A DNA stretch of 64,000 nucleotides from Tubulanus polymorphus (GCF_964204645.1 NC_134032.1:4798175-4862174), one strand, 5' to 3'. Numbered from the stretch's first letter, positions 10,575-63,960 are shown. Made by a program: numbers and translations. Notes: a model not told the origin generated them from the sequence alone.

Positions 10575-10589
10575 GATTCATGCAGTCTA

Positions 10590-22404: not shown

Positions 22405-22522
22405 TGCTGTGAGAAAGTGAGTAAATAAATTGAACCAGAGAAAAAATTGCATCTAGTAGAACGAACACGCTGACGAAGAATTTATGTGACCTTGACCTTC
22501 AATAGTGAAACTAAGTTGAAAA

Positions 22523-41599: not shown

Positions 41600-42289
41600 G
41601 TCAATGCGGACATATCACTTCGCGATTGATTAACCCTCTCATCCACCAGATAACTAACGAGAAAATGCAATAGAATAACTTTTTGGGCCATTAAATCACA
41701 AAGGTGAGGCAAAAAAGCTCATCCAGAGTTTAGGTTATAGTGCAAAGAATTACGCTCAAGCTCTGCAAGTACACACAATAATTGTGTAACTTCGGGGTTG
41801 CAGGTTCGCTCAGGGGACTCTGTTGCTTTGGTAGATTGTTTATGTATCTGTCACGAATTGTATCACTACCCTTAGTCAGCTTAATTACTGTTATAAATTA
41901 AGGAGTAGTGATCTGTTGGAGAAAGAATCACGCAGAGTTCCAACTGAAAAGTGGGCAAAATGGAATTATTTTGTACGAAATGTATCCAGAATGCATGAAG
42001 CTACGTTGTGATCTTCAGCGATTTCTTAAAGATTGTGTTGATTCTGAGTTTGGGCCATACGCTATTCCGTATAAATCTAGATCTCATACTGTAGATACAT
42101 TTCCAGGTAGAGCCAACTCTGTAAAACACACTACTATGATATTGTCAGGCAAAATCGTTTATGCTATAACTGTTTATAATATATCTATAATATGTTTATC
42201 TATAATCCCAGTCATGTCGTTGCTAAATGTCCATCTGCTATCGTTTGTAAGATAAGAGGCTGCGGTAGAAGACATCACACTAGTTTGTA
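41600..42289 (+). pseudogene. Decayed BEL/Pao gag, left part of the element interrupted by the Polinton
   Basis: KGEAKKLIQSLGYSAKNYAQAL, RLCYNC and HVVAKC...CKIRGCGRRHHTSL, reading in frame into 62957 onward once the Polinton is removed. Confidence 0.7.
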
Positions 42290-42382
42290 AGTAATTGGAA
42301 AAGTAGGCTTTCATACCAGAGGACGAGAGGACGAGACACCACTCATCACCACAAGTAATTTTTTTTCCTAATAAATGGGAGA
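42290..42382 (+). repeat. Polinton left TIR
   Basis: Reverse complement of 62865-62956 with 2 substitutions and 1 indel. Confidence 0.95.
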
Positions 42383-42701
42383 TAGAAAAGCATTCTTAGC
42401 TACAATAAATAACAGAATTAAACCAGCAAAAAAACAATTTGAAATAAAAAAGTTAGTTGATGTTACAAAAGAAATTGAACATAAAATATTGAAATTAGAA
42501 AAGATAAAAACTAAATATGGAGAGAAAGTATCAGCGAATTTAAGCTACTGTAATGTTAGTACATCGCGAGAATTTAAAGTGTTTTTACCTGATCAATGGG
42601 TTTCATTGAGTACAGAGGAATTAAAAGATTTAGAAGGATTTAAAATAATCTATCATGGGAAAAATGAAGACGGTCATCATGATTTAGAAATTGTTGATTA
42701 A
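42375..42701 (+). CDS. Polinton hypothetical protein, 108 aa
   Basis: Intact ORF whose ATG lies in the TAAATG motif at the inner edge of the TIR. Confidence 0.7.
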   Translation: MGDRKAFLATINNRIKPAKKQFEIKKLVDVTKEIEHKILKLEKIKTKYGEKVSANLSYCNVSTSREFKVFLPDQWVSLSTEELKDLEGFKIIYHGKNEDGHHDLEIVD

Positions 42702-43893
42702 ATAAGAAATAAAAATAATGAATATCTAGAATCCAAAATGACCTTAGTCGTTTTATAAACAACTACAATCATACAGTCAAACATCTGTTACATGTTATTA
42801 TAAGAGAGTGCTTCATTTGAATATTGATCAATCAAACAGGTGTTGCACAACGTTGTTGTTATATTGGATAGCTAGCAGCTATATAATAAGCACGCAGTAC
42901 ATACAACACACACCAGTACATACAACACACACAGGACAGGACAGGAGGATAGTCATTCTCTCTCGTGATTAAAAGGAATATTTCAATATTTTTACGGTAA
43001 GTTTTAGCAAAACCACCCGACTTGACTCGCAGAGTTTTTAGGGGATAAGCATCCCGTTATTGAGAGGCGCCACGAGATACCTATCCCCAAGCATTTCTAC
43101 TTACACCCCTGTGACCCACACCACGCCAATTCTCCTTCAATATTTGACAGGGAACACATTATATTAAAGGCGCTTTATGCATTTCCTATCAACCCCTTAC
43201 CCCCGAAAGGAGGATCGAAAGTCGAAACTGAAGGAGAACCACGGAGGGTGGACAAAGGTGCATTTTCGAAATGCCCCTGCAAGCCAAGCCCGGCGGCACT
43301 CCAGTGGTTGAATGAATTGCCTGATATACTTAGCTAAAACACCTGAGTAAATGTTGTTGGTGCTTAAAAAATATATGAAATTTGAAATTATGAATTATTC
43401 CGAATGAAAAGAATATGAGAATGAAAACTGATAAATGAATTATGGATTTTTAACTTAATTATGATATAATTTTTAATCAAATTAGTAATCGATTACCATG
43501 TTAATTGATTAACAAATTCAAATTCAAATATTCATTTTAGCATCACACCCCAACCAGTGCTGCCATCTTTCAATTTAAGATACAACTAATAATAAGAAAC
43601 GACTGTAATACAATATTCAAGTAAAAACAAAATAAATTAATAAAAATAATGAATATCTAGAATCCGAAATGACTTATCTGGACAATTTAATTGCTCCGCA
43701 TAGATAGACAAAAGTAGTGAGATGGTGCCGTACGGAACCCACATGGCGATATTCAATTATTTTTTTTGCTTTTTTTCTAAAATATTAATCCATTTTTTTT
43801 CATTGTCAGTTTTGGAATTTCAGAAGTATTTTCATTTTTGATAGCAGTTGTTTCAGAATTATGAATATCATGAATTTTATCTGATTTCTTATA

Positions 43894-44139
43894 CTAATTA
43901 CACCCAATCAAAATGAATACAATTACAAATCCAACTGTAAAATATAAATGATTATCAAATATTCTATTATCAGCAGGAGTAGAAATAACAATATTTTCAC
44001 CATTTTTATTAACATTTTTACTACTTATTTTTTCTTTTACAGCTTTTTTATATTCTTGTGATTCAATTCCTAATTGCCGAGACCATTCAATTTGTTTCTG
44101 TGATCTCGGTTTTTTCTTCACTTCTTCCACCTTGTTCAT
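43894..44139 (-). CDS. Polinton small protein with a transmembrane segment
   Basis: TAAATG start; hydrophobic C-terminus; may be truncated. Confidence 0.55.
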   Translation of the reverse strand: MNKVEEVKKKPRSQKQIEWSRQLGIESQEYKKAVKEKISSKNVNKNGENIVISTPADNRIFDNHLYFTVGFVIVFILIGCN

Positions 44140-44677
44140 TTATTATAGAAATATTTTTACCTGCAATATTTGAAAATGTTATAACCCCAGTTGATAATAA
44201 TGTCATAAATCCACCTAATTGAAATGATAAATATCCAATCCATTTATTTAATTCAGTCATAACTAAATAATCATTTTTTAAATCGGAATATAATCTATTT
44301 TCATCTTCAATTGGTAGTATATAATTACATAATTTACTATAACCTTTTACTACGTTTTCTGATATCGCGTCATCAATTCTAGCTGTTCTCGCGGCTTCAT
44401 AAATCTTAAATAATCTAATAATTTCATCTGATTTCATTGTATCTAATTCATTATATGTTAAATTTTTACCGACAAAATTTTTACATTTTCCAGATGCTAT
44501 TAATATTTCTAATTGATGTTTACAATAAAGATAATATTCATAATTATTATTTGTTGTAACATTATTTAAAGCACCATCATCTGGAATTAATTTGTTTTCT
44601 GTTATTCCTAAATCATCTAAAGTTTTTTCAATTGGAACATCACCATTTTTAGATTTTATTTTCTTTTCACCTACCAT
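44087..44677 (-). CDS. Polinton hypothetical protein, 196 aa
   Basis: Intact ORF, TAAATG start, hydrophobic stretch near the C-terminus. Confidence 0.7.
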   Translation of the reverse strand: MVGEKKIKSKNGDVPIEKTLDDLGITENKLIPDDGALNNVTTNNNYEYYLYCKHQLEILIASGKCKNFVGKNLTYNELDTMKSDEIIRLFKIYEAARTARIDDAISENVVKGYSKLCNYILPIEDENRLYSDLKNDYLVMTELNKWIGYLSFQLGGFMTLLSTGVITFSNIAGKNISIINEQGGRSEEKTEITETN

Positions 44678-44699
44678 TTATATAACAAAAAAATTAGTT

Positions 44700-44970
44700 G
44701 TGATGTTGCAACTAGAATTTAAATAGAATGTAACTAGAATTCAACTAGATTAACAAGCTAGTTGAAATATTGTTGTTTTTGTTTATTTCTTGTTAAATCT
44801 AGTTGATTTTTGTTCCAACTACCAATAACTAGAATTCAACTAGAATGTAACTAGAATTAAACTAGATTAACAAGCTAGTTAAAATATTGTTAAATCTAGT
44901 TGATTTTTGTTACAACTACCAATAACTAGAATTCAACTAGAATTCAATTAGATTAACAAGCTAGTTGAAT
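44700..44970. repeat. Internal tandem/inverted repeat array (CAACTAGAAT / CTAGTTG)
   Basis: 11-bp units in direct and inverted orientation within a higher-order ~100-bp duplication. Confidence 0.85.
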
Positions 44971-45582
44971 TTAAATAAATTCATATTTAAATGGGTGTTG
45001 TAATCTAAATAGTAATTTTGATCTTTTAATATTTTTCAACTTATCCATATATTCATTACGTAAATCATGTGGAATAATATCATTTTCCTCAAGTGCATTT
45101 TTCATCGATTTTTCTATCTTTATTGAAGAATAAAACTAGAAATCTTATATTCTCCCTAAAGTCTTTAACAATTGAATTATATTTTTGATTTAAAACCCAA
45201 GTTGTTATCCCAAAATGTCTCCCAGAGAAAGCTAAATAACATAACTCACTTTCTCTAACTTTTGAATCATGTAAATTTGCGCAATCATCTATGATAAATA
45301 ATGTATTTGATCCTTTATAAATATCAATTGCTATTTTTATACAATTATCTAAATTTTCTTTTACTGTTTTAAGATCTAATATAATAAATTTATTATTTCT
45401 AGTAATATTTCTATCATAAGTTTGATTAAATTCATATGTTGGACAAAATAATACTATATTATCAAAATAGTTTTTTTATAAACAGTTTCTAATAAATTTA
45501 ATATAAAATAAGTTTTTCCACAATTTGTTACACCAGAAATTAACATATTATGAGGCTCAAATATGAATAATTCCTTATTCAT
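44971..45582 (-). pseudogene. A32/FtsK-like DNA packaging ATPase (frameshifted; not in the ORF track)
   Basis: Manual translation: Walker A ISGVTNCGKT, Walker B LFIIDD, SGRH motif, WVLNQ. Confidence 0.85.
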
Positions 45583-48500
45583 TTATATATTTTTAATTTT
45601 ACTTGATAATATCCATTCATTGAATTTATCTGGCCATCCAACCCATTTTACTAAAGAATATTTTTTTCTTTTAATAGTTTTTGTTTTTAATACTTTTTCA
45701 ATTTTAAATTCTTGTTCTAGATTTTCAGTAGTTAAACTCAATTCTTCTTCATAAAAATACCCATCAACTTCTTCACCATCTAAATCTTCTAATTTATAGA
45801 CATATGGTTTTGTTGTTATTACCTTTTTTATTTTATATATTTTATATATTATTTATATTTTAAAATTTCGATCGTATCCTTTATCGAATATCTTTTTATA
45901 CTTAGATATTCTAACATTTTGGCCAACTTTAAATTTAGGGTCACCAAAATCATCTACAAGAAATGCACCATAAAAATTATTCCAAACAATTTCAGCATTT
46001 TCAGGTTTTCTAGCATCAATAGGTTTCATTCCAATAGAAGAATGATAAGAATTATTATATCCTTCTATCAATTTTGGTAAAACATCAATCCATTTCAAAG
46101 TATTATTTGCTGTAAAATATTTCCACATTATTTGTTCTTAATGTTCTATTAAATCTTTCAACAACTGCCGCTTTTTTATCCGATTTTGTTGAAAAATATT
46201 TAATATTATGATTATCTAAGAGTTCATGAACAAGTGAATTATCAAACTCTTTTCCATCATCAAATTGTATTTTTTCTGGTTTTAGTTTATCATCCGAAAG
46301 AAATTTTTTTAAAACATTTGATGTTTGTACAGCATTTTTTCTATAAAGTGGGAAACTCCATACATAACGACTAAAAATATCAATTATATTCAATAACCAC
46401 CAATAATCATCATTATCTTTCTTAACATTTTTCATATCAATTAAATCTCCTTGCCACTGTTGATCTACATAACTTACCATAGTTCACGAAGGTACAGAGC
46501 CGCAACTTTCAGCGACTTTGACACCAAACACGTGAACTATCTAGGTGCGCGAATGTTGTTATGACGTCATAATACTCTAAATAAAAAACACCGCGCGGTC
46601 TCGCGATACGCGCGTGGAAGGATCTAAAATCTATTCTGCGATGTATTTTAAATAATATTTATAAAAGAATCCATTTAAAGACTATAATTAACATATAAAA
46701 CATAAAATTAATTGAAAGCAACATCGCTGGAAGATTAGTTTTAAAAATTTGATGTCAATCATCAATTACCGCTAGTCAAAATGGCGCCCGTCATGATAAA
46801 CAAGACGGAGAATTTTCTTTAACTGACTGGATCTGGTATAAAATGTAGTATTTCACATCACAAATGGCCCAAGTCCGTTTAAAAGAATAACTGTACCGCA
46901 CTCAAGGCACCAAGGTTGGAATATGGCTATGGATCATGACAAAATAGTGCGCTACGACCGATAAAATATCAGCTGTCGGTACTCGGTCATGCCATGTGGT
47001 ACAGGCCTACTACTACTCTTCTGTCGCATGGAATCGGAACCTGATTCCCGAAGCAGCCAAGGTCCTAACGAGAAGAATAAACGAAACAAATGTAAGTATC
47101 CTGCACTCAATTCTACGGTGTCTAATTATCTTCAAGTGTCTACTCCATCCACACTTTAATGTAGTCTACAAAAACATGGACAAGCAATACTTTAGTAGAT
47201 TAGGTTCTCATCAAACAATCTACTGGGGGTTGAGTGTACGTGTAGGTAGTGTACTCACTGCTACTTATCTTATTTTTAGGAAACATTTTTGACAGACCAC
47301 CTATCTACTAGTGAATGATTTTTCGAGGACCCGAAAAGTAGGCCTAGGCCTCTTAGAGTCGTAAGACGGTAGGCTATTCATGTCATTTATTTACATAACT
47401 ATGAAGTCTTGAAATAAATTTCCACATGCAATTTTTTTATTTCAAAGGCAATGTTTTTTTTTTTCAGAGAGTTCAACCGGTTACAGGAACCCGAACAATG
47501 CTAATTTAGAGGTCAACTTGTGACTAGATAAGCCAGGTTTACAGGATTGGAGATGATAAAGAGTGAGTAGGCCTCACTGACTGAATGGTAAATACATCAT
47601 CTGTAGTCATCGCTGCTGTATTGAATCATTTAACTTTCAGCAATCAATTGATTTTTTTGTTTGCTTTTATTCATCTTTAGTTGATGCAGATATCAAGTAC
47701 AAGGGCATGAAGTTGAATCTTTAAACTGGGGATTGTCAAGATTTTACTTGTTTCCATCTTTTCACTTTGATGTTTGAATAAATCTAAACATATAAAAGAG
47801 CTTTTTCTTATGCGTATTCTTGAAGTCGTGAATTCCTATTCATTCCTACTAACAGAAGAAAATAAGAGAAGCTTCGTCTACACTTGCATCTTATACCGAG
47901 GTTATGCGTCTACACTAAGCTCGAAACACGGGTTGAATGCAAAAAGCCAGGTTTTTGAAAAAGGAGTTATATAACCTATTGAGAATTGAACCTATGTTCA
48001 CGAAAAACTCTACAGATGTGGATTCAGTTACTGGAGCTAAATTAAGTGTAGATGCAGCCCTGCAAACGCTGGTTTTTTTATGAACCCGCATACTTTGAAA
48101 CCCGGGTTCAACGAGCTGTGGACGTGGTAATATATATCGCAGTCAGAAAAAGAAGCAAATTGAAAGTACATCAATCTTTTATTTCCAACCTAAAACAATG
48201 AGACAGAAGGTTTGAATGCAACAAGCCATTTGAGCAATTGCGGTTACTAATTTGTAAAATGTATTGATATGATATGGAAGGCCAACTGCTGAATTCCATG
48301 GGTACCATCAGAACCAAATGCACGCTACTTGCCATCTACCTGAAATAAACAATTGTCAATATTATGTTATAAACAAATAAATATGAAAAAAATGCAAATT
48401 TCTGCTTGATACAACTTACATTTGAATGGGAAAAATCGGTTATAAAATATCTGCTATGTCTGACAAATAACTGACGAATCCTATAAAACAAAAAATATAT

Positions 48501-50006
48501 TATCTTTAAAATAAAATTAACAATTCAATGATTTTTGGCAATCTTCCAATACAATATACATAGGTCCCTAGTAGGCCTACGCTAACACTAACTGAGCCAG
48601 ACAACCTGATATCCATTCAAACAAAACTGAATTCGACATTAGATGTGAGATGCGTGAAAATGAGCCATAGGCTGGTTTTCCACGAGAAACAGATCAATCA
48701 AATTTATTTCCCTTTAGCCGTTTCCACAACAAGGGAGCGGCACTGTTGGACAGGACAGACACACATTTTCGAGTCTGTATTAATCAATTGTTTACTGTGA
48801 CTGCGCAGTAATTAGTCAGAATTTTCAGGGAAATCCCCTACAAAAATGGCCCCACCACCCGAAGACCTGCACACAAATTTCTGTGTCAGAGCCAAAATTG
48901 AGGTAACGCCTGCGCTTTTACGCCTTTCTTGTGGAAAATCCTAGTTTAGTCATATTACGCAACGAAATCAATATTTCCTTATGCCAAATGATTATTCTCA
49001 TAACAGTCTTTCATTTCAGGATTCAATAAGTCTCAGTATGTGGCACTAGTCCAATTACAATAATTTTCGAATTTGGTCCGCAGTTTACGATTAGGCCTAA
49101 CTTGATGACGCAAATTCTAAGTCAACTCGTAATAGGGAGTACACATTCTATATTTCAAAATTGACAGGAGAACAAGATCTAATTACGTATGTTTTCAGAT
49201 TTCGAAAGAACCCAATTATATTCCAGTAAAAGTCATCAAAATTAATAAGGTAAAAACGCTAGCTCATAAAATTAGTTTTGAAGTAGTACGAGAAACTGGG
49301 AATATCTCACTTATTTCCAATGCCATATAGACATATAAGGTATCATTCGATTCGTTTCTAGATGGGTTTTAATACTATTGGGTATTTGGATGACTGAACT
49401 GTCTATTCTACCTTAAATTCTTCCAAAACTTTGAGATTTCGCAGGCCCAAAACCGGCAAAATGACAAAATTACTTCCTGGTTTTTAGCGCCGCCCTGAGA
49501 AATTAATATGGCGAAAGTTGAGAAAACTGGAACATAGCTAAACGCTAAAACACGTATAATTTCGTTTTAGATATGTTTCGGTTCGAATCCCAAATACTTA
49601 ATACCTTAAAACGTGACATAAGTCCGGGTGCCGTTCCGTATTCATTCAACACGCGCGCTCAACCGCGAAGCTATTTTTAGCGCAACAATCAATTTAACCA
49701 ATAGAGACGCGCTACGTCATAACGTTCGACATGGTCGCATTTGCCTTTACTCGTACTGTCGTGAGTTTTACGAGTTTTATATTTTCTAACAATTTTTTTA
49801 TGTGTTGTATATGTTGGTTGTTCTAGCATAAATTCATTTATATCTTTATATTTAACTAAATTGTGTGGGATTATCTTATCTAATTTATCTTGTTTTACTT
49901 TACTCCATATATTTTTGGTAGAAGAATAAGCAACCGAACTCTCAGGGTTGTAATATAAATTTCTTAAATATTGTTCTTTAGTATTAGGAGTTTTTTTACC
50001 TCCCAT
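45583..50006 (-). pseudogene. Retroviral-like (rve) integrase with a C-terminal chromodomain, split by the 46485-49763 insertion
   Basis: LYYNP N-terminus (49764-50006) joins in frame as RKT|MVSYVDQQWQGDLIDM. Also IDIFSRY, QFDDGKEF, VVERFNRTL and chromo LVKWVGWPDKFNEW. Confidence 0.92.
46485..49763. mobile_element. Non-autonomous Chapaev-like DNA transposon
   Basis: CACGA...TCGTG termini with imperfect TIR, 4-bp TSD AGTT (46481-46484; 49764-49767); removal restores the integrase frame. Confidence 0.85.
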
Positions 50007-50036
50007 TTATATATCCTGAATTTTAACTTTATATTT

Positions 50037-51285
50037 CTAATATTGAATACTATCTAATTGTGAATTTACAATATTTAATTGCGCATCAGATATAATATAA
50101 ATATGCGTTTTGAAATTTAAGCTTCCTTCTTTCTTTTTCATTAATAATTGTATTCCATCTTTAGTGTTCTGTAGTTTTTTTTCCAGAACCATGTAATGAA
50201 TTATCCTCTGTTGTTCTAAAATCTAACCATAATGCGTATCTATTGCCGGTATAATAATCAATTTGATTAATATTACAATTTTCAAATGATTTTACTTTTT
50301 CATTCATAACATGTTTTCTAATTTCTGGCCACTGATCAATCATTCTCATTCCTTGACAAAATATTTTATTTGCTATTCCTTCGATAGTTATTTCTACTTT
50401 TGTTATTTCAGGATTATAATAATTATCTACCTTTATTGCGCCATTAGAATATGTTACAATGGTAAAAAATATTAATATGCCTTTAATAGATCTTCTTGGG
50501 AAGTTAATATTCTCATTAATTATTTCATCATTTGCATTAATAGTTACAGTTTTAAATTTATCAATATAATCATATAATAATGAAAATCCTTGATTGTATT
50601 GAGTTTGAATTGTGCTAGCAATATTTTCATTAGTTACTGTGTTATATTCTAAACATATATTCGATAATTTATAACCCATATCTTTAACAACGCTAGATGA
50701 TAAAATTTCATTTACAGGAGCAAATGTTATCTCAAATATAATATTTTCTTGAATTACATATTTATACGAAGGTGCATTATTATTTATCAATTCATAGTCT
50801 AATGGAATTTTATATTTGCTTCCATAAATCTTTTTAATCAAATTATCTGTGGCACGAGTTACTATTGTGTCATTAGCTCCCGATCTTAATTTATTATGGT
50901 TTTTCGATTGAATGCCCTGAAATATCATATTATTTCTATTTTCTTTAGTTAACCATACATCTTTATAATGCATAAATAAATTATAATCATCTAATGAGAA
51001 AACTGTTTCTGGACCAATCTTTATTGTTAACTTTTTAATCAAATATCTCCCAACATTATCGACAACATAATTATTATCATGACCTGTTACTTTTATATCG
51101 GCTGATAAATAAATACTATTTGGAACATAAAAAGTGTTTTGTGTTAATCTAGGAATTCAAACATATAAAGTTTCATCCGAATTAATATTTGAAGGATTAT
51201 GAGTAATTATATGATGTGATCTTTCTGCTTTAATAGCATTAGATATTCTAGAAATCTTAGAAGGACTTATGTAACTCCCACTCAT
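50037..51285 (-). pseudogene. Major capsid protein (double jelly-roll, putative)
   Basis: ~415 codons from the TAAATG start at 51285 with one stop and one frameshift; beta-rich pattern; size and position fit a Polinton MCP. Confidence 0.7.
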
Positions 51286-51305
51286 TTATTTAACAAAAAA
51301 ATTAA

Positions 51306-52750
51306 TTATTTATTTTTTATTATTTTTTCCTGATATCTTTTTGATATCATATTCACTAACCCAAAAATAATAGCACTTACAACTGTAATTAAAAATAAGA
51401 TAATATGTTCAGCAGCAAAATTAAGAATATTCCCAGCAGATTTCAATATAAAACCAACAATTGATGCAATAATTCCTGGTAAAGCTGCAGCAGATTTTTT
51501 AGATAGTTCCCATAAATATTTTGCTAATTTCTTTAAACCATCTTTAACTTTATATTGTATTGAATTATTACCTGGGGGTTTATCCGGTTTATTGGGAGTA
51601 GGAGTAGATTTTAAAGAATTTGATATTGCTAAACCAATTGTTGTAAATAACATAGTAACAGCTGTTAGAATTGAAAGAATTGTTATTCCTTCTAATTTAA
51701 ATAATAATTTTATTCTATCTTTCAAGGATAAGTCAGAATTTGGTTTTATTCACAAATCTTTAAAAATAACTTTTAATCTATTAATATTATAATCATATGA
51801 TTTTAATAATAATTTAATTTCTTCTTTTTTAATTCTATGTTATATTCTAAATCATCAATTTCTTTTTCTAAATATGCATTTCTTTTTTTAAATTCAATTT
51901 CTTCAATAACTTTATTATCTCTATCTAATTTTAATTGTTCTATTTCTTTAATTTTATCAGTTCTGTCTTTTTCCAAAGTTCTAATTTTAAAATCTCTTAT
52001 ACTTTTATCATGCGCAATTTTATCAGATGCATTTCTTATGCTAATAATCTCTCTAATTGCTTTATCAAAAAATATATCTAAATCCTCTAGTTGTTGATCT
52101 GTTGCATCAATTAATCCATTCGGTAAAAGTTTTTCAATTGGAACTTTATTTGATTTAAGTTTACTAGTTTTGGAAGTTATATTTTGTTCAGAAGTTGTTT
52201 CTGTTTCTGATTTCTTTTTGATTATTTCAAATAATTCATTAATTCTTTGTTTATATACGTCTATATTATCATCTATTTCTTTTTGTGTAACATCAGTTAT
52301 TTCATTACTATTACTTAATATTTTAATTCTATCTGGTTTTAATTTTTCTAAAGTTGATTCTGATAATATTCTATTTTTATAAGTGATATCAATATAATTA
52401 TCACCTTTCAAACGATAATAACATTTACCATTATCTAAAAATTTTAATTGATCTGCTAAAAGTCCAACGTCTTCATCATTTATGTTAAGTTTAGATTTTT
52501 CAATTAAATCTTCTAATTTAGGTATTTTGTTTAAATTATCTAAATCTTGTTTTACTAAATCTGGGTCTAAATTTTCAGGATTTAATTGTGATTCTGCATT
52601 TTTAATATAATCAGGCATATTTAAATTATTATTATATTCTGGCTCATTACCGTCATTAAAACTTGTTTCATCAAAATCAGGTGGTTGTTCATCACTTATA
52701 CCAGGTTCATCAAAAGGATCCATTCCAATATCTTCACCTTCTACATCCAT
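51306..52750 (-). pseudogene. Acidic/coiled-coil protein with C-terminal membrane helices
   Basis: ORFs 51803..52750 and 51306..51725 are colinear and only the first has a TAAATG start. Confidence 0.6.
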
Positions 52751-52978
52751 TTATATAATAAAAAATTAAAATTTAAAATATAATATTCCTCCTATAACAA
52801 TTCCTATACAAGTTAAAGCTAATTTAGTATTTTCATGGGATTTATTATCATAATAAGTTTTAATTATATCATGCTGAATATTATCAGTTTAAATATTTTC
52901 TGTAGTATTGTAATCTTTTATTTTGGAATCATTATTTAATTTAATATTCTTAGTTTTAGTTTCTGTTGATTGAATGTG

Positions 52979-54174
52979 TTATTTATTTTTTTCGCCTTCC
53001 ATTAATTTTGGAGCAGTAATAATCTTTTTATTTATATCATTTAACCCAAATGAATTATTTATTGTTGCAGTTTTAATTAGATTATTATAACCAATTATAT
53101 TTCCCATCTTTAATACTAAATCATTAGAAATAATTAATAGATTAGGGCCTATACAATAATTTAATCTTATATGTGATTTATCTAAATAATTTTGATATCT
53201 TACAATGTTTTCTGGAATCGATCTATTTTTATCATTATGAATAGAATCTTCAAATAATACTTTGAATTGTTTCTGTGTATCAAATGATGTATTTAAATTT
53301 CCAATTACTGGGGATCTTGTTTCAACTTGCGCACCTAAAATACATATCAAATGAGTTCTAATAGATTGATTTATTCTTTGTATACCTGATTTTGTAAAAC
53401 CTTCATTATTTTCTAAAATGAAATAAACCCAACCATTATTGTTTTCTTGTTTTAAATCATCATAACATTTCGGTAATTTATTGAAATTTAATGTTTCTAA
53501 ATCCTTTGTTTCTATTTTACCATAACCTAATTCATTATTATAGATATTATAAAAACTATGAGATGGTATGGGAAGTGCACAATATTCTGCAATCTTTTTA
53601 GGGCAAGGAAGTGATCTTATTGTTCCAATTTTCGTTCTAAAATCAGAATTATTTATATCTATATTAAATTCCTTACAAATTTTATAAACCTTTGATAAAT
53701 TAATATTATTATCTAATTCTTTAAAATATCTAGATCCTGGTAAAGCACACTCTAATTCATTTAATATTATTCTTATTTGAAAGTATGTATGAAATCTAAA
53801 TAAACTTTGAATTAATTTATATTTAGAATTATTCAAATGATCATTCCAACTTATACCACATCCTGGGGTTGCACAATAAACAGCAAAATTTAATTGGTTC
53901 TGCCAATACTTCATATTAGATTTTAATAACCATTGTTTTTCATCTTTCAATTTTTTAAAATTAATTAAATATACATGAAATATATTTTCCATCTTTGCAT
54001 TAAAATTATAAGTTTCAGTAACATAAATTTCTAAATTAGTTAATGAATCTATAACTTCATCATTTCTATATGTAATATCTTTATTAAAATCTATTGCTGG
54101 AATATTATATTTAATTGATTTATTATATTGGAAAGCTTTTGGAAAACTATCTACCAAGCTTTTGGAAACCCCAT
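52979..54174 (-). CDS. Polinton hypothetical protein (~400 aa)
   Basis: Long ORF; likely true start at TAAATG 54174, disturbed by a short duplication; C-terminus probably continues to ~52770 via frameshifts. Confidence 0.65.
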
Positions 54175-54190
54175 TTATATAATTAAAAAA

Positions 54191-54616
54191 TTAATAATTT
54201 ATTAATTCTTTTAATAATTTATCTTGTTCTTCAACTGTTATATGACCATTTAAACTTATGATATAATCTAGTATGTTCTTTAATTTATTAATTTCTTTTA
54301 TATTAGTTTTAATTTTTTCTTTATTACTTTTTATATCTAATTTTGAACTTATACCAGTTAAAACACTTGAACTTAATCCTAATACACCAATTGATATAGC
54401 TAAAGGTGTTAATGGACTGAATATTGCTAGAAATGTTATTACAGAACTAATTGTAACCGAACCACTTATAATCAAATAATATATAATTTTAGATTTTAAA
54501 TATTTTTTCTTTTTAACTTTTAAGTCACTTTCAAATTCTAATATTTGTTTTTCTCAATATATTTTTAATTTAGTTTTATTTATATCATGAGGAATAATAT
54601 CAATATTATCTTCCAT
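54191..54616 (-). pseudogene. Small two-TM / coiled-coil protein
   Basis: TAAATG start at 54616 is in frame with ORF 54191..54475; one internal stop. Confidence 0.55.
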
Positions 54617-54635
54617 TTATTTAGAAAAAAAATTA

Positions 54636-55058
54636 CTAATTAGTAAACTTATAAGCAACAAATATAACAATAACAGTTCCGCCTAAAATCCAAATTATTT
54701 CATATTTCTGTTGTTCTTTACTTGGGGTATAATAATCTGATAATTTAGGTTTGTATAGATGTAATTTTTCTTTAATTGTTACTGCGTTATATAAACTCAT
54801 TGCATCATCAACTGATTGAAAATCTCTATGTGAAATCTTCTGATCATATAATTCTTTGCTAATATAATCCATATAGTTTCGCCTCTTTTCTCTATATTCT
54901 TCTGCTGCTTTATTGTATTTCTCTAATGCTAAGTTATTTCTTCTTTGTTCTCCTAATGAACTATTTTTATCAATATGTTTAAATAAATATCCACCACCAG
55001 TAAATCCTAAAGCGTTAACAATTGCCCATCCTATAATATTTATATTTGCAGAAGCCAT
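54636..55058 (-). CDS. Polinton hypothetical protein, 140 aa, Gly-rich hydrophobic N-terminus and C-terminal TM
   Basis: Intact ORF with TAAATG start. Confidence 0.7.
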   Translation of the reverse strand: MASANINIIGWAIVNALGFTGGGYLFKHIDKNSSLGEQRRNNLALEKYNKAAEEYREKRRNYMDYISKELYDQKISHRDFQSVDDAMSLYNAVTIKEKLHLYKPKLSDYYTPSKEQQKYEIIWILGGTVIVIFVAYKFTN

Positions 55059-55082
55059 TTATTTAGTAAAATAATTACGCAT

Positions 55083-55303
55083 TTATATGGGAGGAATATA
55101 TTTTTGTTTTTCTAAATAATCAAAAGTTAAATTAGATAAAGTAACTGCTAACGTTAATTTTAAGATATCATTTATATCAAATCTATCAACATTAACACTT
55201 CCCATTTTAATACATTTTTTAATACCATTGAATAACATACAGTTCCAACTGATAGTAATGCGCCATTATATAATCCAGTTATTATCCACTTATTATCACT
55301 CAT
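55083..55303 (-). pseudogene. Small hydrophobic protein (~73 aa, one frameshift)
   Basis: TAAATG start at 55303; manual translation MSDNKWIITGLYNGALL...YLEKQKYIPPI. Confidence 0.5.
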
Positions 55304-55443
55304 TTATTAATCGAAAAAATTACTATCTTTAAAATATTTAGTTAACTTATTTACGATTAATTCAACATTTATTTCATTACTAGTTTCATTTGTATATATT
55401 TCAATTATTATTTTTTTAATATCATCGATGATAAAATCTTCAT

Positions 55444-55665
55444 TTAAACTAATTCATAAAATATTAAAGATTCTCTAAGTAAATTAGTAATCTTTTCTAC
55501 ATTTAAAGTTTCTTTATCTATTGTTGTTTTATACTCAAATGTTGTTTCATTAGAAAATGATATATTTTTGATATGTGTAATTACATCATTAATGTTAAAT
55601 TTCATTTCTTTCACACGTTTAAAATCAAATCCAAAACATATGCTCGGCCCAACAGTTATATTCAT
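55444..55665 (-). CDS. Polinton hypothetical protein
   Basis: TAAATG start; probably extended to ~55320 originally. Confidence 0.5.
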   Translation of the reverse strand: MNITVGPSICFGFDFKRVKEMKFNINDVITHIKNISFSNETTFEYKTTIDKETLNVEKITNLLRESLIFYELV

Positions 55666-55681
55666 TTATATAATGAAAAAA

Positions 55682-56444
55682 TTACTCTCTACATCTTATA
55701 ACTAATTCATAAATTACAGGAAAGTTATTCAAATCAATTAAATATCCATTATGATTTCTTATTTCTAATTTAAAATTATTAAAATGTGGAATACAAGGTT
55801 TAAAATCACATTCAGCTAAATTATAATTTATTTGCGTTCCAAATTGTTTAACATTTTTTAATGGTAAAATATTTAATATACTAGAATTACAAATTGTATC
55901 TTTAGTTGCTTCAAATGCTTTTGTAGGACCAATTAAATTGCAATAAATATAAAAATGTGTAAAAGGTATTATATTTGATATACATACCATATGTGTTTCT
56001 AGTCATAATACGCGGTTTAATTCCTAACATTTTAGCTATTGGTTTGTGTACCATAAATGCATGTTTGCGTTCATCATCTAACTTTATTTTAATTTTATTA
56101 GAACTATCACTTTTTATAAATCTAATTGAAAATTTATCTTCACTTTCAAGTTTTACTTGTGCTCTTCTATTAATTTCTTGGGCTAATGTTTCTAAATTAT
56201 ATAACCCTGGTTTTAAAAATAGATGAAACCATTTTCCTTTATCTTCATTAAAAATCAAAAAGACTCTATGTTCAAGAGTTTTATCCGATATATTGTAAAA
56301 TGAGTTACATAAACTTATATTTACTAATTTTAAATCTACACAATTCTTAAATTCTCTATCTAATTGTACTAGTAAATTATGTGATTTATAATTTGTAAGT
56401 TTTCTAGAATCAACAAATATTCTGTATTCTTTTAATTCTACCAT
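55682..56444 (-). pseudogene. Minor capsid (penton-like, single jelly-roll) protein
   Basis: Two overlapping ORFs; SFYNI, PGLYN, FYIYCNLI and NGYLIDLNNFPVIYEL motifs typical of Polinton minor capsids. Confidence 0.7.
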
Positions 56445-56512
56445 ATTTTATAACATAAAAAAATTACCGCTCATCACTAAAAATTAATTTTAATAAAATT
56501 TTTCCTAAATAA

Positions 56513-57740
56513 ATTGATGAGAAGATAGCATGCGAAATTTGTGGTGAACTTCTAAGAAAAAGTAATATGGCTCGACATATGAAAAAACATGATGAAAATT
56601 ATAAACCCCCTAAACTAAACTGCCCAAAATGTAATAAATTATTCACACGAAATTATGTTAAAAAACATTCAGAGAAGTGTAGAATTAATGGCACAACGGC
56701 TCATGTTGATAGTTATGAAAGTAATAGTAATTCTGCTGAAGTTGAACCTGAAGTTATTTGGAAAAGACCTTTCTTATTCTATGATAAGGATAATATAAAA
56801 GATCATTTCTGTGAGCCTCGTCGAATGAAATATAGCCCTGAAAATACAGAAGATTGGGAAAATCATCAATTTCGTAAAGCACATATAGATAAAATTTCTA
56901 ATAAATTTGAAACTGAATTCAATGAAAGAAAAGATAATTTATTAGAAAAAAATAAAATATGAGAAAACGTTACCAGATAATAAAGAAACAGTTGAAAAGT
57001 TAGAAAAACAATATAATGAATTAACAAGAAAAACATATTATTGTAAATATTGTAAATTGATTATTAGAACAAGTAATTCAAATCTACATAATAGAACAAT
57101 AAAACATAAAGAAAACGTAAGAAAATACCAAGAGCTTAATGAAGATCTATTACCAATAAATTATAAACAAAAATGCCCACAATGTAGTTATGCGACCTTA
57201 AGGCAAGAAGGTACTGTGTTATTTTGTAATGAATGTGGATGGCAAAAGAATTTATTGGGTGAAGAAAAAACTAGAAATTTTCACATAGATCCAAAATTAA
57301 ATTATCTTGATGAAATTTTTAAAATATTTTCTATAGAAGATCATACACCAGAATATATGCAATGGCTTGAAAAAATGAAAACTATAGAAAATAAAAATGG
57401 TGAAATAACAAAAAAAGATATTATAAAAACAATTATTCCGTCAACATTTAACACAAAACAAAAGAAAATGTATTTATATTTATTATTTAACGATTATTAT
57501 GAAAAACCTAAATTAACAGAAGAAGATATGAAAAATATAAAAAAAATATTCAAACAAATATTAATGTATTATTTGGAAAATAGAATAACAGATTCAATAA
57601 ATTATGAATTCTTTTTAAATAAGATTGTAAATTATTTAAACCTAGATATTATAATTCCATTTGATGAATTAACAAACAAAAAGAAACAAAGAGAGCGAGA
57701 TGATATGTGGAACAAGATAGAACAAGGAAGAAGAACCTAA
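56513..57740 (+). pseudogene. Zinc-finger protein fused to a poxvirus VLTF3 (A2L)-like late transcription factor domain
   Basis: Three C2H2/C2HC fingers, then CPQC-x11-CNECG, NYLDEIF, INYEFFLNKIV and KQRERDDMWNKI. Start apparently mutated (TAAATT at 56510-56515); frameshifts at ~56950-57010. Confidence 0.6.
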
Positions 57741-57803
57741 ACAATTAAATGAAAATGAAGAAGCCAATAGTGATTTCGAGTATGATAATATTGATTTTAT
57801 GTT

Positions 57804-60800
57804 TTAATAACCATAAGGTAATGTTTTTATACCATCATCTAAAATATGCCTTTTATCATCAAATGGATTTAAACTAGTTTTTTCAACTTCATTAATGTAC
57901 ATCTCGTGATCTTCTGATCTTAAACAATTCATTTTGTGTTTCATTACAATTGATTTATATAAACATTTTATATAATCTAGAAATTCTATATGTTTATCAA
58001 CCACATGTTTTGTTATTCCTTTTAACTTTTTAGCTTCATGATCTTTTGTTCTATAACTATACATTTTACTTCTTATCCCAACAAATTCAATCATTTCATC
58101 ACCCCCTAATTCATCTTTAAACTTACCAGGAATCTTTTTATTATCATTGCTAAATAGTTCATGATCTTTGGGATAATTGCTAAAATCAAAATGATGTTTT
58201 AATGTTTTTAAGTCTTTTGTTATATCATTTGTCTTGATTTTTAGTATGTAGGCGTCCGTATTTTTGGCTATTAATGGAAATCCACAGTTAAATGTACCAT
58301 CTTCAGTTGATAAATCATAAACATAATCTGTTGGGTTATATATTTCAAATAAATCCTTAACTTCTTCTGTTAACTCATTTTCTACATGGCTTAAATTAAA
58401 GCAATTTGGTTTAGATTTAATCAATCCAATATTCATATTAAAACCTAATTAATTACATAATATATTCAATCCTGATATAGCAACTTTTCCTTTTTGAGCT
58501 AAAGATATCGTTTTGCGGTTTTTGAAACTTTTTGAACAATCTGCAGCATAAAACCCAATGAAGAACCATTTTCTTAAATTATTTTTTGCATTTAATACAT
58601 AATCTGGTACTATCTTTTCTTTAGTTGAAGTATTACTTTTCACTATTGCATGAATATAGAATTCATCATTATATTTTATAGCAAAATCTTTAGGATTATT
58701 TACAAGTATTCTATAAACTGCTGTTGATTTCATATGATCCACGATGTTTTATGTGAATAAACTTCTTCACAGAATTTCTTTATTCTTTCTAATAATTTTA
58801 AGTTTTGATTGCATAAATACCAGCAATATTGAGTGCGATTAACATAATTATACACACCTGCTGAACCATCTCCCATGAAAAATCCTTTGATAAGATATTC
58901 TTTTTCTTCTAATGTTTCGGGTTCTATGTTATAAATATTATCAATTATTTCATCAAATGACATATGATTCATTCTTTGGAAAAATCTTTTATGTAATAAT
59001 TCATCTCCAATTTTTATATCAGTTGGTTTTATTTCATTACCATTTCGTTTAATTAAACTATGATCTTCTGTAACATCTACAAACCCTAATTTAGTTCTAA
59101 CTCTATAAATTTTCTTATTTGTTTTATGCCTAATAATATTCTTTAATTTTTTCCATCCATTTCTTGTCCAAATATCCATTAAACCATTTATTTGTATTAA
59201 TTCTTTTTCACCATATGAAATATAACATTCATTTTGTTTTGGAATTATTTCTGAAATTTTCTTATCAATATTTTATTATTCCATTTTAATAATATTGGGG
59301 TGTCAGCTGTTACAGAATCAAAATATAATATTTCAATATGCTTTTCCCCAAAAAGTGGTTGTAAAACATTATAATAAAAATCATACATTAATAATTTTGA
59401 TACTCCTAAAACAGTTGAACCAATGAATATAGGTTTATTAAATTTCATTGACGTTCTTTTTAATTTAACTGCTGTTAAATAATCTTCAAATCTTTTATTT
59501 CCTAAATGTCTAGGACTTGATTGTAGATGTCTTAATCTTTCAGAATTATTTACTAATTCAATATCATTTCTATTTCTAATATTTTCGCATGTTTTACCAT
59601 AAAAACTATTATTCATTAATTTGAAGAAATCTTTTTCAAAATCTGTTTTTGATATGGTTCTCTGTTGAGTATTGAAATCTATATATTTTTCTAACCACTT
59701 CGATTGATTAAATTCAATATATCTATGTACTTTCTTTAATTTCATTCTTTGTTTTAGATAAAATTTTAACATTCTATAATGAACAATATAATTGTATTTA
59801 TTATTTTGAGTAAGTATTAATTTTTCTGTAAAAACATGATCTTTCGGTTTTATTTTCTTCTGGTATTCACTTAAATAACTATCATCTACGGTTAAATGTT
59901 CTGGGCAATAAGGTAAGTTTCTTGTTTTAAACTTTATATTTTCAGGATATTCTAAATCAACTACAAAGAAATAACCAATTGGTGCTTCATCTTCTAAACT
60001 CATAATTGCGCTTTCCCAATTAGTTTTATCATCATTTTCAACTTCTGTTAATATAAAATTTTTATATGGTTGAGATTGCATCATTGCCCAACCATATAAA
60101 TTATTGGCGTCAATATATAATAATTTATATTCATCATTTGCTTTAAAATACCTATCTCCCATAACACCACTAATTCCACCTCTAATTGATTTTTTTTCAA
60201 ATAATAAAACCATATCTGGTTTTTTTAATAAATCTTATTCTACATTTGTATATTTTTAACCACATTGCCAGGTTAAACCAGGACTTGAATAACAATAACA
60301 AGGATCAAAATTAAAATGATTCAAATTAACTTCTCTAAATTTTTCAAATATGTCAGCCAATATCATAACATCGGATTTTAGATATAAATCAACTAATTCA
60401 CCATGATTTTTTATCTCAAAATGGTTCCAAATATTTAATGTTCTATTAAACACTTCATCTTTCACATACTCCTCTTTTAATTGATCATAAAATTGATCTT
60501 TTAATAATTCTGTTACATTAAAATCATTGTGTGTTTTATAAAATGAATAAGGAATTGCGCCTTTATATCTCAATAATTTAAAATCTTCGTCATTTGGATA
60601 ATAATATCGAGTTATTATAAAATCATTATCAACTAAACTTTTTTTGATAAATTATCTAATGAACTTGCTAGAAATCTATAAGAATCTAAAAATCTAATGC
60701 AACCAAATTGAAATGAAATATAATTTTCAGATGTTTTAGCTAATAGTTTAAAATCATATTCTCTTACATTTACACCATTCATAGCATTATATTCTTCTAT

Positions 60801-62872
60801 TTCTTGATTAATTGTACCCAATTTGTTTGGTAATTGTTTTATAAATAGATGGGTATCATAGCCTGATAAATTATGAAATAATATTGGTACGAAATTAACT
60901 TTCTTAGCTTGAATATTGCAATCTTCATCAGCAGCTCCACGATATTTTGAATTTAAATGATCGTGATCTCTAACTTTTTTATCAAATGAATAAAAACGTT
61001 TTTCACAATAACAACAATGAGTTGCATAATTAAAATCAATTTCATCTTCTTTTGTCATAACTATTTTTTTATTTTTGTTTAATAATTTTGCAAAATCACT
61101 TTCTAATTCAATCATTTTGTCACAAAAATCATTAACTACATCTTCACCTCTAAAAGAAATATATTGACTTTCATATAATTCGGGATAATTTGATTTTATA
61201 TAAATTCCATAAGGAGCAGCTCTTTGATGAACTTTTTAAATTGTATTTATAATTGGTGGGTCTTGTATTGTGTCTTCATTTAATTCATTTCCTTTATCCA
61301 TTGATTTTAATAATTGCTTTTTGTTATATATTTCTTTTCTATCTTGATCAGTTAATTCTTTATTCAACGATTCAAAATCCCCATAAATTACAAATGGAAC
61401 AATATTTTTAAATTCATGATTAGTAAATTTCAACTTACAATCTTTTTTTGTTGGCATTATTAATTTACAAAAATCTTTATTATGACATAATTCTTTATGT
61501 TTTAATAATGTATTCTCAGTCATAAATTTAGATAAACATTTTCTACATAGATAAATTTTATTATGGTGATCACTTACTGTTCTAAAGAATAAATCAATTT
61601 GTTTTAACCACATATAATGTTCATTTTCATCTTTTTTGTTATATAACAAATCTATAGCATTTTCATCATCATAATATTCTGTTAAATATAAAGCTTCCAA
61701 TGTATAATCTTTAATATTTTCACCTTTTGTCTTTGGTAATTGCATTAATTCGAATACATTTATTTTTAAATTATTAACTTTTTCTATTTTAGGAATCATT
61801 TTTTATAGTTACTGGATATTGATCAATTTTATATAATGTTTCATATTTCCGGTAATTTGTTATTCTAAAACTATGTGTCATATCTTCTGTTGGGTGTAAA
61901 CAACTAATAATTGACCATAGAAAACATTTATTATCTTCATTTTGAACATTTATTACTGCTTTTGTTGTAAATGGTAATTTAATATAAGATGATGCTTTAA
62001 TATCCTTTTCTGTTGTAAAGTTTGAATCATTTTTAAACATTTTATTACTTTTTGATGTTTTATTCCTTTTTGTATTGTAAACATTTAAATCTAAATATAT
62101 AATTTCATTCAATGTTAAGCCAGAACCCTCAAAATATCTTTCTTCAATACGACGTTTAAATACATTAAATATTTTTTCTAACTTCTTTTTTATTTGTGTT
62201 TTTGAAATTATTTCTTCAGAGAGTGTTTGAATATTATAATCCATTTTTTCTTCTGACTTTATAAAACTTACTTTCCCAGAGATACTAATTTTTGGATATT
62301 CAACATCTGTTATCAAATCTAGTATTTTTTCTATTATTTCATTAAATTTACAATAATCTTCTATTGTTGTACCTTTAAAAAATTTAAATATAATAGCTGC
62401 AGGACCAATTTTACTATGTAATGTTTCTAAAATTTCAATTGTATCTTTTATTTCTAATGAATCAATATAATTTCTAACATTTTCCATGTAAGGTTTATTT
62501 GAAATGGATTTAGTTTTTGAACTTGGTTTTTTTACTTTTTGAGATTTATCATCAAAATATTCTGATCCTAAAACATTTTTATTTAAATTTTTATAATGTT
62601 TTTGTGATTCGAGATGTCTATTATAATTCCTTTTTACTATAAATTCATTACAAACTTCACATTTTATTTCATCCACATTCATATTTTCTAATCTTTCTTT
62701 TCTTTCATTGGAATTATCTGGAGTTTCAAAATCTATTAGAATTTTTTATATGATTTGCAGTTTTTTCATGTCGTGTTTTATTAGATGTATCGATGTATTT
62801 TTTACAATATGTGCAATAATATTGATTTTTATTAACATTATTGTTTTCTGTCTGGTGTTCATTCTCTCCCAT
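57804..62872 (-). pseudogene. polB: Protein-primed family B DNA polymerase with N-terminal zinc fingers, an endonuclease VII-like insert and an intein
   Basis: ExoI YGDFES, ExoII FHNLSGYD, ExoIII YLKSDV, SIRGG, motif A YIDANNLYG, motif B KLMNNSFYGK, motif C YFD|TDA, KMY, KLKGI; multiple frameshifts. Confidence 0.93.
58260..59316 (-). mobile_element. Intein with a LAGLIDADG homing endonuclease in PolB motif C
   Basis: Block A SVTADTPI, block B VDVTEDHSL, block C LIKGFFMGDGS, block E FFIGFYAADCS, block F YVYDLST, block G IAKN followed by Thr+1; two frameshifts and one stop. Confidence 0.9.
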
Positions 62873-62956
62873 TTATTAGGAAAAAAATTACTTGTGGTGA
62901 TTAGTGGTGTCTCGTCCTCTCGTCCTCTCGTATGAAAGCCTACTTTTCCAATTACT
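62865..62956 (-). repeat. Polinton right TIR
   Basis: Reverse complement of 42290-42382. Confidence 0.95.
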
Positions 62957-63960
62957 TTTGTATAAATCAGATTTTAGGCAAAATATTGTCAAATCAAATT
63001 CAATGGAAGAAGTAGGTATTTTGAGCAACCACACGCGTAATTCATCAAATATCTATTTTCAGGTGATACCTGTTGCAGTGATCGGAAAGAATGGTCGCAC
63101 CGTCGCCACTCATGCGTTGCTGGATTCAGCTCTTGACATTAGCCTCATCAACGATGAATTAGCTCAAGAATTGGGTTTAAAGGGTAAGAAGCAAAGCCTT
63201 ACCATTAATACCCTGTCAACGAGCGTTACTGAAAACTCTCAATGTGTGTCGTTTAAACTGAGGGCTTTGAATGCTCCATGTACTAAATCTGATATACTAG
63301 TAGTGGGATCGGCGTATACAAAATCTGGTTCATTTCGATGCCAAACTCAGAATAAGGCTCTTTGTCAATCACAATTTAAACATTTGGAAGATTTGCCAAT
63401 TGCAGACGTCAATCGAAGTGAAGTAAAGATTTTAATTGGCGCTAATAATCCCCGTGCACATGTTCAGCTTGAAATTCGGGAAGGGCTCTCCGATCAACAA
63501 CCAGTGGGGATTCGAACCCCCCTAGGCTGGTGTATTTTGGGTTCATCATCGCTTTTGCTTACTGATTCATGTCAGACCATCGTAAACAATACTGACTCTG
63601 AAGAGTCATCTCTTGATAATTTAGTTGAACGTTTCTGAGTCATTTGGTGTGGCTTTTAAGGAGTCTAAAGGGTCTATCGATGATCAAAGGTGTGAAAAAA
63701 TTCTAAAAGAATCTACAAAACTCGTTGAGGGTCATTATGAAATAGGCATGTTATGGAAATCAGATGATTCTGTTTTTCCTGATGGTAGGAATTTGGCGTT
63801 AAGTCGATATAGAAATTAAGAGCGTAGGTTGAAAGGTTCCGAGGGTATGCTTCTAAGTTAACGGAGAGTGTGTTAGCGTTTTCAGGGTCACGGATTTGGT
63901 ATATTCCTCATCATTGTGTGCTGAACCTGAACAAACCAGGGAAAGTTCGAGTGGTTTTTG

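Follow-up and report, generated by a model that had tools for sequence, protein, structure and literature searches.

Introduction

The closest described relatives of the insert reported here are the PolB inteins of nucleocytoviruses (mimivirus, P0026), found at YGD/TDS (the slash marks the junction) in motif C, a site whose label we take to be 'pol-c'. They have in common with our family the position in motif C, Ser1, terminal Asn and Thr+1, a frequent penultimate Lys, a length of about 350 aa and two LAGLIDADG motifs, and they form the nearest branch in our tree. The present inteins differ in having a protein-primed Polinton polymerase (pPolB) as host, integrated in an animal chromosome in the case of the window, and in junctions reading YFD, YGD, YMD, YLD, ASD or MTD. 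Nucleocytovirus alleles are defined by an RNA-primed PolB (PF00136); the pPolB inteins would work in the same way but form a separate host class.

Two other groups of inteins are comparable in chemistry or fold. Class 1 inteins of the cysteine-less type that bear motif NX (PolB16; PMC10189870) have the same Ser1/Thr+1 oxyester chemistry and NX Arg-His, whereas the archaeal homing inteins TliVMA, PI-PkoII and PI-PfuI have the Hint-plus-LAGLIDADG fold that is predicted for our family. Identity to PolB16 and the archaeal inteins is 12–19% in structure alignments, the host here is a eukaryotic viral one, and the window-family intein is contiguous, not split.

PMC10710043 describes inteins in viral-like polymerases encoded on scaffolds of the nuclear genomes of Klebsormidium, Tetrabaena and 'Honda fermentalgiana'. 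These cases likewise place an intein in a viral DNA polymerase gene of a eukaryotic nuclear genome, but the hosts are algae and a labyrinthulomycete rather than an animal Polinton. The main text of that paper contains none of the words 'Polinton', 'animal' and 'metazoa', and two supplements contain none of 'Polinton', 'metazoa' and 'protein-primed'. Animal Polintons (adintoviruses), as portrayed in PMC8502044 and PMC10748475, have the same terminal inverted repeats (TIRs), 6-bp target-site duplication (TSD), integrase, ATPase, capsid and pPolB as the element analyzed here. Insertions of HNH and VSR domains in pPolB are described by Jeong et al. (10.1101/2023.08.22.554363 / PMC10748475). Inteins are mentioned neither in the main text and searched supplements of PMC8502044 nor in those of Jeong et al., and the latter does not mention LAGLIDADG. 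One sentence of PMC11161782 suggests an intein origin for the endonucleases inserted in pPolB, saying that they 'result from intein invasions'; the passage names neither a Hint domain nor the motif C site. PMC13215967 and the supplement of PMC11131425 likewise gave no match. Inteins are stated to be absent from metazoan genomes in PMC5784728 and PMC8529194.

Our literature search, whose scope lay outside closed journals, Repbase and InBase, yielded no Polinton, adintovirus or protein-primed polymerase described as carrying a Hint-type intein. An insect iridovirus carries an intein, and the presence of inteins in viruses that infect animals is therefore probably no novelty in itself. What is new is the host class in which this known family of inteins is found, and its arrival in animal chromosomes by way of Polintons; the gene it occupies is viral rather than cellular. 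We regard it as highly probable that the locus described below is a broken homing-endonuclease intein in the pPolB of an animal Polinton, and that intact copies would splice, likely home and likely originate from giant viruses.

An intein within motif C of the polymerase

The window, as we call the whole stretch of 64,000 nucleotides that was analyzed, had initially been annotated as carrying an intein that splits motif C into YFD and TDA by 1057 nt. Translation of the minus strand bears this out to the nucleotide: the upstream half of motif C, YFD, ends at 59317, the insert starts with SVTADTP at 59316 and ends with PLIAKN at 58260, and the C-extein resumes with TDA at 58259. The insert thus has a length of 1057 nt and the following features.

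58260..59316, minus: intein coding sequence from Ser1 to the C-terminal Asn, with two frame changes and one stop
59060..59316, minus: N-terminal splicing (Hint) region with Ser1 (block A), NX Arg-His (IRHKT) and block B (TEDH)
59071-59060, minus: block B, TEDH
58865..58900, minus: first LAGLIDADG motif, IKGFFMGDG (FFMGDG near 58880-58865)
58533..58570, minus: second LAGLIDADG motif, WFFIGFYAADC (FYAADC near 58553-58536)
58260..58330, minus: C-terminal splicing region with YVYDL (block F) and PLIAKN (block G)
58325-58311, minus: block F, YVYDL

The splicing blocks named in the initial annotation (Ser1 in SVTADTP, TEDH, YVYDL, terminal Asn and Thr+1) could all be located in the translation, so that the insert displays the complete S...N/T arrangement; motif NX, as used in PMC10189870, was assigned by motif, not structure. 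The predicted lesions are likewise present. Frame changes near 59257 and near 58745 divide the intein into three reading segments, and a single in-frame stop lies at 58451-58449. As for the two proposed LAGLIDADG helices, both motifs were found, but the second is eroded, reading ADC in the window copy where relatives have ADG.

Searches with Hint and LAGLIDADG HMMs, suggested at the outset, did not lift the window's own copy above threshold. Its N-terminal piece stays below the curated cut-offs of both Pfam Intein_splicing (E 2.6e-4; 21.3 bits against 35.8) and TIGR01445 intein_Nterm (E 8.7e-4), whereas intact relatives (P0001, P0408, P0393 and P0379) carry LAGLIDADG_3 above cut-off. The C-terminal piece alone matched nothing in Pfam at E 0.01 and gave weak matches to intein-containing models in NCBIfam. 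The N-terminal piece matches the solved intein PI-PkoII (E 7.7e-7), the C-terminal piece aligns to the intact relative P0001 at 59%, and the intein as a whole is 59% identical to that of P0001 over 356 columns. Motifs and homology together place the insert far beyond chance level as an intein. At the level of sequence, it is confirmed as an intein of the Ser1/Thr+1 type whose LAGLIDADG endonuclease has two motifs. Given its lesions, the copy in the window is incapable of splicing or homing.

The host Polinton and its chromosomal setting

The proposed host, a Polinton in an animal chromosome, is well supported by TIRs, a 6-bp TSD, Polinton genes and an animal-type GPCR. The element comprises the following parts.

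42290..62956: whole Polinton, 20,667 bp
42284..42289, plus: left TSD, TTTGTA
42290..42382, plus: left TIR, starting AGTAATT
45089..45475, minus: piece of an A32-like packaging ATPase (Pox_A32 E 3.8e-7)
45583..46483, minus: rve integrase core and chromodomain (rve E 4.4e-11, Chromo E 2.1e-5)
50161..51156, minus: putative major capsid protein (Capsid_N E 0.006, below cut-off)
57807..58259, minus: C-extein of the polymerase, beginning with Thr+1 (TDAY)
59317..62745, minus: N-extein of the protein-primed polymerase, in several frames, with an endonuclease-VII-like domain (tblastn to P0001)
62865..62956, minus: right TIR
62957..62962, plus: right TSD, TTTGTA

The TIRs (about 93 bp, ~97% identical) start with AG and are flanked by a perfect 6-bp TSD, as is characteristic of Polinton/Maverick (adintovirus) elements. 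The gene content (DNA_pol_B_2, rve, Pox_A32, a weak Capsid_N match and a chromodomain) identifies the element as a Polinton. Polymerase pieces match DNA_pol_B_2 just under the cut-off (E 1.8e-5 and 6.8e-5) and the relative P0001 does so above it; in tblastn, N-extein pieces are 31-56% identical to P0001. No cysteine maturation protease was found among the Polinton ORFs covered by general domain scans. GC content is mostly 21-25% in the Polinton and 36% in the left flank. The N-terminal part of the integrase (about 49764-50006) is separated from the core by a nested 3.3-kb insert and the polymerase lies in several frames; this Polinton copy is therefore dead. The same contig carries a single-exon rhodopsin-family GPCR (9630-10577, minus; 7tm_1 E 2.8e-16), for which all 10 look-alike clusters listed are commonest in animal phyla. 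The chromosomal host is an animal.

The insert that splits the integrase (46485-49763) is GC-richer, has imperfect CACGA...TCGTG ends, an apparent 4-bp duplication (AGTT) and no long ORF, and looks like a non-autonomous DNA transposon.

The endonuclease-VII-like (HNH-type) domain is situated toward the N terminus of the polymerase (60636-61235, minus; E 5e-4) and was also observed in P0408 (residues 411-458, E 2e-8). Window-type pPolBs therefore bear two nuclease insertions, this domain accompanying the intein.

Filled and empty sites in genomic reads

Region 57200-60600 was examined in sequencing data, in particular in X6, a set of raw genomic reads with the same species label from a separate study (~12% of the run covered). 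By identity to the window, the 10,832 X6 reads divide into 297 (99+), 3271 (95-99), 2548 (90-95) and 4716 (under 90), which indicates many divergent copies. X6 reads cover the whole intein, and a contig from X2 that contains the intein crosses its N-terminal junction, with two differences. Most X6 reads differ from the window at its lesions, the stop not being shared by 142 of 148 and the first frame break not by 176 of 227, so that these lesions belong to this copy or to a minority.

An assembly chimera or contaminant, in which giant-virus or protist DNA had been joined into an animal assembly, seems extremely improbable against this background. Such an error would be in keeping with the small share of X6 reads at least 99% identical to the window, and with the fact that the organism behind the reads is linked to the window's host through word sharing: four runs, all from a single study that may itself be the source of the window, contain 0.38-0.46 of the words of this region. 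The TIRs and the perfect duplication, however, tie the element to its flanks, the GPCR shares its contig, and intein GC (0.25) equals polymerase GC (0.24-0.26). Moreover, the X2 contig crosses a junction, X6 comes from another study, and independent records show the same architecture.

Other reads skip the insert: 43 were listed as joints, there are further classes of 20 and 32 reads, and a contig from X1 does the same. Three joint classes each skip a net 1057 nt, and in the two empty-site classes that were checked TDS follows the joint. Intein-plus and intein-minus copies, for which the initial annotation had proposed to look, occur together in the reads of one species, the empty ones being short by exactly the length of the insert. 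Mean X6 depth was 214 inside the intein (8 bins) and 604 on the neighboring polymerase (6 bins), a ratio of 0.35 that is rough, as reads of more distant families also align to the conserved polymerase. The filled and empty classes may represent separate Polinton families rather than alleles of one family.

Directly after the intein (58251-58259), TDA is encoded in the filled copy of the window and in P0185, a close relative, but TDS in the empty-site reads checked; in one empty-site read class 4 of 9 bases differ. The difference is possibly a co-converted flank or a mere family difference.

Relatives with open reading frames

The N-terminal piece of the window intein matched 329 of 734 candidate proteins (best E 9e-64). 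Among the 120 matches listed, 113 are RNA-primed PolBs (PF00136, mimivirus included), four are pPolBs and three are topoisomerase-type proteins. The best relative, P0001, has an open frame with PF03175, Intein_splicing and LAGLIDADG_3, and is 66% identical on the piece. Full-length open proteins combining pPolB and intein are P0001 (1693 aa), P0004 (1603 aa) and P0408 (1476 aa), and all three have the intein at the same D/T position as the window. Further pPolB-linked members came from a profile search and cluster look-ups. On the basis of >55% identity to a pPolB reference, 142 of 440 proteins could be sorted into five groups of pPolB inteins, with 4 members in A, 2 in B, 5 in C, 130 in D and 1 in E, and 16 of these 142 include both junctions. 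The hosts are PF03175-type polymerases or closely alignable to them, and the pPolB relatives derive from metagenomes. Group D consists mostly of fragments, each on a separate ENA contig (up to 917 kb), as would be expected if one large eukaryotic genome, or a small number of them, contained many decayed copies.

A search of 50%-cluster representatives gave 1855 matches; junction reading of the best 150 revealed no further full-length pPolB host. A pPolB extein was likewise absent from 52 scanned loci (17 on viral contigs, 35 on metagenome contigs), where readable junctions were YGD/S, save one. In an Atlas search with the P0001 intein, all scores were <0.9, which provides a lead at most. The window had originally been interpreted as recording a single transfer into one germline. 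While the intein, its site and its host all hold, the presence of the family in several pPolB lineages, and of filled and empty forms in the reads of one species, shows that this is more than one event in one germline.

P0123, P0392, P0393 and P0395 (from a cluster of 55) are ORFs of ~365 aa that contain nearly the intein alone, beginning ~10 residues before it and stopping 4-7 residues after it. They are possibly intein-only remnants, split genes or inteins at an ectopic site in the host of group D.

The intein superfamily was also observed at D/S or D/T sites in the type II topoisomerase-like proteins P0054, P0072, P0089, P0267, P0332, P0350 and P0356, which points to a readiness of the superfamily for non-allelic moves.

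Splicing residues and predicted fold

Residue conservation was counted among the 142 pPolB-intein proteins, in each case only in those with a matching flanking pattern. Ser1 is present in 75 of 79, every one of 91 proteins has the block B His, the terminal Asn occurs in all 34 matched C-ends and Thr+1 in 33 of 34. The motif NX His, described as critical in Ser1 inteins in PMC10189870, is found in 65 of 70. Both endonuclease Asp residues are also conserved (73/74 for the first and 36/38 for the second). The block F Asp (YVYDL) is present in the window and in full-length aligned rows; its family count, 20/46, comes from an unspecific pattern. The penultimate Lys, regarded in the initial annotation as a departure from the usual His, turned out to be the norm: the 95 related inteins have Lys in 66 cases, His in 19, Ser in 8 and Gln in 2, mimivirus being among those ending KN.

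A structural model of the relative P0393, built from 72 sequences, had a pLDDT of 93.3. Its best PDB matches were homing-endonuclease inteins (TliVMA, E 4.4e-18; PI-PkoII; PI-PfuI; PI-SceI), and it also matched the I-DmoI fold. Thus, a Hint-plus-LAGLIDADG fold is predicted for the family through P0393 rather than through the window's own protein. An earlier model from 6 sequences (pLDDT 49.1) was set aside.

In open-frame relatives, removal of the insert restores the motif (YxD plus TDS), whereas the frame of the window copy is broken. Conserved residues and the location inside the catalytic motif argue for splicing. A nuclease insertion tolerated as an extra domain without splicing, like HNH/VSR in Polinton polymerases, has precedent in 10.1101/2023.08.22.554363, and the window's polymerase itself harbors the endonuclease-VII-like domain elsewhere. 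Nevertheless, we judge this very improbable: here the catalytic motif itself is split, Ser1, the NX and block B His, the terminal Asn and Thr+1 are present, and the predicted fold of the relative is that of a complete intein.

Origin and spread of the intein

A tree of 68 rows and 356 columns was computed with IQ-TREE (LG+G4 without a mixture model) and rooted on two inteins from another site. It omitted P0054 (wrong end call), 29 of 100 sequences as near-duplicates (>80% identity), three partial group D rows and the proteins from the 50%-cluster-representative search, and its rows included no archaeal or phage pol-c inteins. The window's intein belongs to a single branch (100/99) that unites eight of the nine pPolB inteins and joins 11 RNA-primed PolB inteins (96/92) with the common ending G[FY]xLI[VI]KN. 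These 11 sister inteins, whose records are unnamed or labeled 'viral metagenome', probably come from large viruses. The ninth pPolB intein, P0167, falls elsewhere without starred support. An AU test did not reject all nine pPolB inteins together (p 0.429), and a second independent entry through P0167 is accordingly not established.

The tree supports the link to large DNA virus polymerases that the initial annotation had drawn, and sequence relationships make giant-virus polymerases the likely source. Because the two-intein root is weak and LG+G4 was used without a mixture model, we infer donor and direction rather than reading them from the tree. An archaeal, phage or cellular source, or passage from Polintons to large viruses, would be compatible with that root, with the set of rows in the tree and with sister rows that are mostly unnamed metagenome proteins, their large-virus origin being deduced from PF00136/PF03104 content and a mimivirus member. 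We nonetheless consider it improbable. The predominance of RNA-primed PolBs among the matches listed, mimivirus among them, points the other way, the sole phage record matched at 26% identity, the archaeal PI-PkoII match is weak, and the pPolB clade is nested among PolB inteins of far greater diversity.

Lateral homing from one Polinton lineage to another is best indicated by the mismatch between intein and exteins in P0004. Its polymerase has a strong PF03175 match (E 9e-32) and its exteins are only 24% identical to those of P0001 (E 0.02), yet its intein shares 45-46% identity with the inteins of the window and P0001. Following the description in PMC8502044, the P0004 polymerase would be Alpha-class and that of the window Beta-class.

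Alternatively, the intein may have been a passenger that a free-living viral ancestor of Polintons acquired a single time and that was then inherited with the polymerase, with no homing in the animal; filled and empty elements would then be separately integrated families, and splicing would still be required. Among Beta-like hosts plain inheritance fits, as inteins and exteins have diverged to a similar degree (59% and 58% between window and P0001, about 45% for both between window and group D). Next to the junction, moreover, the sequence of empty-site reads is not that of the window, and a large share of all reads (4716/10832) is <90% identical to it. On the other hand, P0004, a single record accompanied by one fragment (P0296), bears an intein of the same clade in a barely alignable polymerase, and the endonuclease aspartates are kept across the family. 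Unused homing endonucleases usually decay. All things considered, passive inheritance strikes us as less likely than an intein that homes.

Proposed mechanism

In an intact element, the polymerase would be made as one precursor. Ser1 would form an ester, aided by the block B and NX histidines, Thr+1 would take over the ester and the terminal Asn would cyclize, rejoining YxD and TD and restoring polymerase motif C (class 1 oxyester chemistry). Any replicating carrier element would have to splice, because the insert splits an active-site motif. The LAGLIDADG domain would cut empty motif C sites in co-resident or co-infecting elements, and repair would copy the intein. Entry into pPolB would have occurred from a large-virus PolB via the shared D/TDS target, once or possibly twice, and would have been followed by lateral homing between Polinton lineages, distant polymerase classes included. 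We are quite confident of splicing, LAGLIDADG-driven copying into empty sites and entry from large-virus PolB as a joint account. That homing took place among integrated germline copies, rather than only among free replicating genomes, is possible but somewhat doubtful. Equally tentative is the broader idea that animal genomes hold hidden true inteins from giant viruses, with germline and Alpha/Beta homing, many copies per genome in more than one host and more than one entry into protein-primed polymerases.

Significance

On this evidence, the statement that metazoans are devoid of inteins remains valid for the cellular genes of animals but fails for their genomic DNA; proposals for intein-inhibitor drugs lean on that absence. 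A shared intein would be a record of DNA-level contact between giant viruses and Polintons, in line with the view that the replication of certain Polintons accompanies that of large viruses. With both filled and empty sites present in one species, intein homing becomes open to testing in an animal genome, which has no precedent within the literature searched. The family also adds Ser1/Thr+1 inteins from hosts that do not look thermophilic to a class valued in protein engineering (PMC10189870).

Other features of the window

Two zinc-finger ORFs (56513-57740, plus), for which Pfam gave zinc-finger matches only, lie tail-to-tail with the polymerase. The second presumably resembles late transcription factors of large DNA viruses. 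An LTR retrotransposon at 22520-27733 has what we take to be a Pao/BEL appearance. Finally, an aspartic-protease ORF (62901-63638) adjoins the right end of the Polinton, which was inserted into or beside it.
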